The position numbers and the translations under genes were made by a program. Source: Escherichia coli (GTDB lineage Bacteria; Pseudomonadota; Gammaproteobacteria; Enterobacterales; Enterobacteriaceae). Taken from it: DNA of 30,907 nt. Numbering within the stretch: the first letter of the stretch is position 1; every line of letters begins with the position of its first letter. This document shows, piece by piece, positions 22,076 through 22,198 of the stretch. The notes beneath the pieces were generated by a model. It worked only from the letters and a program-made list of their open reading frames with translations. It had not been told where the DNA came from and searched no databases. The stretch is taken from NCBI RefSeq assembly GCF_003334385.1, contig NZ_QOWN01000055.1, one strand, 5' to 3'.

Positions 22076-22198
22076 TAGGCAAAGTTAAAGCCCCATGGAG
22101 TAGCACAAAATATGCCACACAAAGGAAACGGTCTGAATAACGCAGTGATGGAGAACTTCTTCGGCACACTGCAAAATCGCATCGTGGTCGAGCGCTGA
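22076..22198 (+). pseudogene. IS3-family transposase (OrfB) C-terminal remnant
   Basis: Translation ...HKGNGLNNAVMENFFGTLQNRIVVER* matches the conserved IS3-family block (RKGNCWDNAxMExFFxxLKxE). It has no intact upstream reading frame and ends prematurely. Confidence 0.35.

Follow-up and report, generated by a model that had tools for sequence, protein, structure and literature searches.

The aerobactin–iha island

The window, that is, the whole stretch of 30,907 nucleotides that was analysed, is an E. coli chromosomal island in which an IS66 element, a sialic-acid (nan) cluster, an MFS gene, iucABCD-iutA, the insertion-sequence relic described here, iha, and an IS66 element follow one another. 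Positions 21519-22700 are matched at 100% identity in a group of complete genomes, strain G1/2 among them, and 18 genomes carry at least 80% of this segment in one place. The pheV-type island of CFT073 has the backbone of the window (99.2% identity over 1783-22217 and 99.6% over 24506-27660). The features on which the analysis turns are as follows:

19323-21518, plus strand: iutA (ferric aerobactin receptor), the last gene of iucABCD-iutA, from its open reading frame and from PGAP on the 100%-identical locus L001
21545-21586, plus strand: iutA terminator-like hairpin, an 18-bp stem and then a T-rich tail, from the sequence
21748-21798, plus strand: IS66-family left-end stub of 51 bp, ISEc22-type, start GTAAGCGTC, from 98% identity to the ISEc22 terminus
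21799-22178, plus strand: IS3-family (ISKpn1/IS1397-like) orfB relic, from profile, tblastn, and blastn matches
21799-21810, plus strand: TGAT and then CTGCGCCC, the putative tip of a left inverted repeat (IRL) fused to the internal copy of an 8-bp repeat, as suggested by alignment
22076-22198, plus strand: the interval flagged at the outset, consisting of the third of the relic's reading-frame segments, with the DDE "E" motif NAVMENFFGTL, and about 20 nt of non-IS flank
22179-22217, plus strand: right-junction flank common to all relic contexts, from allele comparison
22218-24505, no strand: iha-upstream segment of 2.29 kb, common to the O157:H7 island and replaced in CFT073
22914-22987, minus strand: Esr41 small RNA (Rfam RF02676, 108.6 bits against a gathering threshold of 102, E=2.1e-21)
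24996-27086, plus strand: iha (siderophore receptor/adhesin), from its open reading frame and homology
27603-27668, minus strand: the last 23 codons of terD (87% amino acid identity to O157 TerD), truncated at about 27662 by an IS66-type terminus, GTAAGCGTC

Within 21545-21620, the terminator hairpin is followed by short direct repeats (TGTTTACAGCCAGTAT, twice) and then by AATATACAGCC. Further to the right, the stub, the relic, Esr41, iha, a transposase fragment, and the terD remnant make up an iha module of about 5.9 kb, with the terD remnant as its right edge. This module is found in the STEC tellurite/adherence island and, beside iucABCD-iutA, in ExPEC pheV-type islands, and the terD remnant to the right of iha indicates that it descends from a ter-linked (tellurite-resistance) island. 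In the literature, Esr41 is called "EHEC-specific" and is placed on SpLE1 together with ter and iha (PMC5286369); in the window, it lies between iutA and iha in an aerobactin island of the ExPEC type. A scan of 21300-25100 against Rfam gave no match on the relic itself.

Identity, extent, and decay of the relic

The initial annotation had read 22076-22198 as an isolated and truncated relic of an IS3-family transposase, carrying the conserved C-terminal signature of OrfB. The peptide KGNGLNNAVMENFFGTLQ is encoded at window positions 22121-22174 in frame 22082, in which 22079-22198 translates as AKLKPHGVAQNMPHKGNGLNNAVMENFFGTLQNRIVVER and then reaches a stop. Taken alone, this 39-residue piece matches the NCBIfam profile NF033516 (IS3 family transposase) at positions 296-329 of 369 (E=3.4e-6), and the match to an IS3 transposase is confirmed as real and far beyond chance. 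The motif is indeed a conserved one of OrfB, the DDE "E" region of the catalytic core, but its placement at the C-terminus does not hold, as it lies about 50 residues before the true end of the protein. For the last 20 or so nucleotides of the interval (..RIVVER and the stop), an IS origin is not demonstrable, and detectable IS homology stops at about 22178.

Nor is the flagged block isolated. It is the 3' third of a relic of about 380 bp that begins at 21799, the remainder of which lies in two other frames: SAPNILSRNFAAMKANEKW (from about 21799), and EYLLQGKKRYLSLVL followed further on by SPVMEIVNTMVHDALSVPGPEDAP, a stop, and LHTDQGWQYRMAGYRQS (21867-22079). Across the three frames, the relic is collinear with OrfB residues of about 84-211 of 261 in ISKpn1/IS1397-like elements, and the three pieces are collinear with residues 117-245 of IS150 OrfB (tblastn, combined E=9e-21). 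The stitched 135-residue translation matches NF033516 over profile positions 202-329 of 369 (E=1.3e-21, 77.3 bits) as well as the Pfam integrase core, PF00665 rve (E=1.9e-5), and the family HMM recognizes the relic in each of the three frames (8.8e-21, 4.1e-15, and 1.7e-07). The score is below the 160 bits that NCBIfam sets as its curated full-length cut-off for NF033516, which is expected because the relic covers about one third of the profile; we are dealing with a pseudogene fragment and not with a member gene. Family identification was based on NCBIfam, Pfam, and named homologues (the ISKpn1 and IS150 families), and all of these bear out an IS3-family OrfB relic: NF033516, Pfam rve, the collinearity with IS150, and the homologues of the ISKpn1 family.

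At the DNA level, intact IS3-family elements match 21803-22179 with 82-84% identity (E about 1e-102 to 1e-116), and this homology ends sharply on both sides. Positions 21803-22178/9 correspond to about 884-1260 of a 1,445-bp element. The relic had therefore rightly been called truncated, as about 26% of the length is left and orfA and the right end are gone. Similarity to orfA, which a whole IS3-family element has joined to orfB by a programmed -1 frameshift, was found nowhere in the window, whether the queries were IS150 OrfA (tblastn) or full elements (blastn), and a search of the window with the full element found no sequence resembling the right inverted repeat (IRR) and no other piece of the element.

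A search with the reconstructed ancestor brought up intact OrfBs of 252-261 residues that are 69-73% identical to the relic, from metagenomes, Serratia, and Rahnella. From the DNA that encodes them, an element of 1,447 bp could be delimited, with TGGACTGCACCCCAAAAGTTGGACA and TGTCCAACTTTATGGGGTCAGTCCA as its ends; full-length relatives of 1,445-1,447 bp have TGGACTG...CAGTCCA ends, and a full-length relative is present in fifteen E. coli genomes. Full-length ISKpn1/IS1397-like relatives (about 1.45 kb) have orfA and orfB, TG...CA inverted repeats, and hairpin-loop sites, whereas the window has only its quarter of the element, with neither orfA, nor IRR, nor an intact frame. Such full-length copies are rare in E. 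coli. The one examined, from strain 2012C-4221 (L016, 1,445 bp), is 84.4% identical to the relic and is itself frameshifted. The named family nearest to the reconstructed OrfB is ISKpn1, and at only 63% amino acid identity to named ISKpn1 proteins, the parent of the relic must be an unnamed relative. IS150 is the best named tblastn match among plasmid records and has motifs that also occur in the relic (PNEKW, DVTEF, HSDQGWQY, and KGNCLDNAVxExFFGTLK). However, the relic is only 40-46% identical to it in amino acids (the named matches are IS150 at 45.7% and ISKpn8 at 45%), and IS150 DNA is about 67% identical to the relic's intact relative. Identity that low means that the relic is not a copy of IS150, which was ruled out as its parent. 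On the basis of best hits, we tentatively place the ISKpn1/IS1397-like clade, and the relic with it, in the IS150 group.

The reading frame has decayed beyond use. Compared with L016, the window relic lacks one nucleotide after each of 21862, 21948, and 22076, has gained one at 21917, and has gained two at 22172-3; the four 1-nt indels are frameshifts, and two in-frame stops remain after indel correction. The first Asp of the catalytic triad has become Tyr (GxYVIEY versus VTDVTEF), while the second Asp (HTDQGWQY) and the Glu (AVMENFF) remain in place. The O157:H7 allele has another set of indels and, after correction, zero stops; it keeps both Asp residues and has Lys in place of the catalytic Glu. 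The DD(35)E triad is thus incomplete in both alleles, with a different residue gone in each. With its frameshifts, its stops, and the lost catalytic Asp, the relic is unable to code for a transposase, and today it neither encodes anything nor has any function. A chance match, or a domesticated, functional integrase-like gene, would have only the shortness of the motif first flagged in its favour. We give either practically no credence, as E-values run from 1e-21 for the protein profile to 1e-116 for DNA, and every allele carries several frameshifts and stops and has lost a different catalytic residue. Taken jointly with the history of carriage proposed below, the relic is very probably a non-functional IS3-family fossil of the ISKpn1/IS1397-like clade, near the IS150 group.

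This kind of feature is already known, and in STEC genomes the locus carries a PGAP annotation as a DDE transposase pseudogene. A shallow search of the literature found no earlier description of the relic among the papers listed. A relic of the 5' part of an element of the same clade (element positions 12-421, 77.6% identity) lies at 8001-8407 of L017, the chromosome of E. coli 24A16CRGN010. This copy (L017/H196) was dropped as a candidate for the "missing half," as its context, near S6 peptidase and AbgT transporter genes, is unrelated.

The left and right junctions

On its left, the relic abuts an IS66-family terminus. The stub matches the initial 51 nt of the ISEc22 left end at 98% identity and has the GTAAGCG start that is typical of the family. 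In intact copies from three unrelated contexts, the ISEc22 terminus matching the stub lies about 30 bp upstream of tnpA. Every IS66 copy examined starts with GTAAGCGT, and the family-typical GTAAGCG is found about 85-90 bp upstream of tnpA. Unlike ISEc22, the window keeps the terminal 51 nt only, and no tnpA, tnpB, or tnpC sequence follows the stub.

The left end of ISEc22 contains a hairpin, CACCA-AATA-TGGTG, at the place where the relic abuts the stub. IS1397 and ISKpn1 are IS3 elements of Klebsiella and E. coli that target REP hairpins (palindromic units), and the hairpin sites of the ISKpn1/IS1397-like relatives match this published preference (PMC1525189). The reconstructed empty sites of the two intact relatives that make up the comparison form strong, terminator-like hairpins of -23.5 and -15.4 kcal/mol whose apical loops contain the insertion point; at the relic, the left half of the hairpin target alone survives. 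That hairpin targeting of the IS66 end explains the position of the relic is reasonable but unproven.

The first bases of the relic may also record how it was shortened. It starts TGAT-CTGCGCCC-AATATCC, and the IRL of L016 reads TGGA-CTGCACCC-CAAAAG. Among the 8-mers of IRL positions 1-25, CTGCACCC is the only one that recurs exactly inside L016, at position 884, precisely where homology with the relic begins. An internal deletion of about 879 bp between these direct repeats could have kept the IRL tip, a reading drawn from few bases: the tip itself comes down to only 4 nt, of which TGAT agrees with TGGA at two.

A different origin of this junction must be weighed here. The relic could be a chimera, in which the IRL tip of another IS3 element was joined via TTGCGCCC microhomology to the middle of an ISKpn1-like orfB; the donor IRL would already have lain in the IS66 end, as on plasmid L015, and there would have been no internal deletion in a single element. 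On L015, an 82%-identical IS66 stub is broken at the same nucleotide and continues with TGAATTGCGCCC, which matches the first 12 nt of the relic at 10 positions, and then with an unrelated IS3-family pseudogene (39% amino acid identity); furthermore, at the internal site, the intact relative L010 carries TTGCGCCC. A break at the same base in front of a different pseudogene allows for either a microhomology chimera or an older shared junction. However, the annotated IS3 CDS of L015 begins about 7 nt past the junction and without its N-terminus, so that TGAATTGCGCCC may not be its own IRL, and the closest relative, L016, provides an exact repeat between IRL and interior on its own. We therefore consider both the chimera and its L015-like donor unlikely and prefer deletion within one element.

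The stubs themselves differ between alleles. The 51 nt in the window are those of ISEc22, while the O157 stub is about 69 nt long (18 bp longer) and about 60% similar (L002, 5931-6000). The O157-type stub is also the one found on L015 (3514-3582), with its break at the same base and the different IS3-family pseudogene after it. With stub alleles about 60% alike and the adjacent relic 82% alike, the proposed history needs an additional conversion event by ISEc22. Such a conversion, by an active copy of ISEc22, and repeated targeting of the same site are both possibilities.

On the right, a simple nested insertion would be followed by the rest of the IS66 element, and neither tblastn with TnpA, TnpB, and TnpC nor blastn with ISEc22 found IS66 sequence there. 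Because IS66 sequence does not resume, the right break at about 22178 is a separate event. The sat-linked class of alleles departs from the window sequence after about 22217, and this breakpoint would fall inside IS sequence if the relic instead reached about 22310, with the full but heavily scrambled C-terminus of OrfB. In frame 22082, the alignment to the family HMM does continue ungapped as far as profile position 254 of 261 and has tail matches at F, EL, Y-K, and YR, and DNA identity in register over 22172-22310 is 0.37 versus a background of 0.25 +/- 0.04, reaching 50% in one patch of 40 nt. Yet the in-register value equals but does not exceed the highest among 434 shifted registers, the tail by itself has a score of -2.0 bits (equalled by 514 of 1,000 shuffles), blastn is blank beyond 22179 even at word size 7, and identity drops abruptly from 84% to background. 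An extended relic is unlikely on these grounds, although a little more IS sequence may survive, and we keep about 22178 as the limit of detectable homology.

In CFT073 and many ExPEC genomes, PGAP annotates a minus-strand hypothetical protein of 47 residues, WP_011076574.1, over the right end of the relic. For this to be a real small protein of CFT073-type genomes, one would have to accept a start codon within sat-class-specific sequence to the right of 22217, a frame that has a stop and no start in the window and internal stops in O157, and a course antisense to a decaying transposase fragment. We regard it as highly implausible, and the open reading frame was dropped as a gene because it is unconserved between alleles.

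Distribution, alleles, and history

The relic core (21800-22180) is present in about a quarter of complete E. coli genomes (1,417 of 5,426), at 1,497 chromosomal and 3 plasmid places. Two allele classes can be distinguished by identity to the window. The first (754 records, identity at least 95%) has ExPEC-type strains among its listed examples, including CFT073 and O25:H4, and the second (664 records, identity 80-90%) has STEC among its listed examples, including O157:H7, O111:H8, and O103:H2. The relic is found between iutA with its stub and sat (the CFT073 type, common to the window up to 22217), between the other stub allele and Esr41-iha-ter in the O157 island, without iutA, and upstream of sat in a selC island, again without iutA. 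The patch is common to three otherwise unrelated island contexts: aerobactin-iha, aerobactin-sat, and ter-iha.

These contexts bear on the suggestion in the initial annotation that an IS of another family once bordered the aerobactin module here. This is not well supported. Homology between plasmid and chromosomal iutA stops at about 21560, inside the terminator hairpin, and about 190 bp of other sequence and the IS66-family end separate that point from the relic. The relic also occurs without adjacent iutA, upstream of iha in about 660 STEC genomes and upstream of sat in the selC island. Since it is often found with no iutA nearby, and since the iutA contexts part at about 21560, the relic belongs to the iha/sat side; as judged by comparison of sequences, it marks the left border of that module and not of the aerobactin module. 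Assembly of the island by successive IS events, proposed at the same time, fits the nest of IS fragments (the IS66 stub at 21748-21798 and the IS66 terminus at about 27662), and CFT073 also has an IS2 terminus at the other edge of its sat block.

In the tellurite/adherence island of O157:H7 (SpLE1, O-island 43/48), the same locus upstream of iha is annotated by PGAP as a pseudogene, "DDE-type integrase/transposase/recombinase." In contrast, RefSeq genomes including CFT073 leave the ExPEC allele unannotated or mis-annotate it as the antisense hypothetical protein. The O157:H7 allele has the same left start as the window and three frameshifts in common with it, and it leads into the same Esr41-iha segment; its identity to the window is 87% over the core and about 82% over the left 245 bp, and its IS66-type stub differs. 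The three shared frameshifts and the same start imply a single, already dead copy as the ancestor of the ExPEC and STEC alleles. Differences between them are unevenly distributed: 43 of 250 aligned columns differ in 21799-22046 and 16 of 1,003 in 22047-23049 (Fisher p=2e-19), with a maximum chi-square breakpoint at 22043. Because the compared stretch, 21799-23049, is all non-coding, this step indicates a crossover inside the relic, and it points to later recombination between ExPEC and STEC lineages.

By itself, the relic matters very little, and IS debris at the borders of pathogenicity-island modules is routine. Together, the stub and the relic conveniently mark where the iha/sat module begins on its left, and they help to trace the origin of CFT073-type islands from an Esr41-iha form like that of the window. 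The shared frameshifts and the stepped divergence mark the relic as old and as having recombined between ExPEC and STEC lineages.

The following history would account for these observations. An IS3 element of about 1.45 kb would have inserted into the left end of an IS66-family element, at its small hairpin. A deletion of about 879 bp between the CTGCACCC direct repeats (IRL 5-12 and internal 884) may then have removed orfA and the 5' third of orfB, fusing the IRL tip to orfB codon 85 or thereabouts. The second break, itself observed at about element position 1260, would have taken the 3' end of orfB and the right inverted repeat. The dead fragment gained its frameshifts and stops and travelled as the left edge of the iha module. 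Since then, it would have served only as a passive patch of shared homology, a process suggested by the observed pattern, in which the ExPEC/STEC step would have arisen by recombination within the relic and the CFT073-type sat block would have been joined 39 bp to its right.

A bolder joint proposal is that this fossil of about 0.4 kb is a recurrent crossover point at which iha, sat, and Esr41 modules are swapped among E. coli lineages, and that its hairpin-targeting IS3 clade homes to the terminal hairpin of IS66-family elements, an undescribed IS-in-IS preference. We put this forward tentatively, as something possible but on balance doubtful.

The CFT073 island can be compared with the window across this border. 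In place of 22218-24505, CFT073 has a 9.15-kb sat/IS66/IS2 block (L014, 20419-29573) that contains sat, a hypothetical gene, ISEc43, transposase fragments, and an IS2-like element. This replacement is the reason that Esr41 is absent from CFT073-type islands. Homology to the window resumes (24505/24506) exactly at the IS2 terminus (...GGGGCAAATCCA and then TTGTCAGCGCC), which suggests a rearrangement associated with IS2. On the simpler reading, the CFT073 island would be a window-type island with the sat block in place of 22218-24505. The idea that the window is a recent hybrid of ExPEC and O157 islands was rejected, since its iha side is closer to CFT073 (99.6%) than to O157 (98.8%). Likewise, the IS3-family copy upstream of iha in CFT073 was rejected as a relative of the relic; it is IS2-like, about 24% identical in amino acids to IS150 OrfB, and gave no P0001 hit. 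In strain G1/2, an inverted sat/sigA-like autotransporter gene lies among IS66 fragments about 10 kb to the right of the window-type locus (L001, 31465-35322), so that the sat module is present further along that island but is not joined to the relic.
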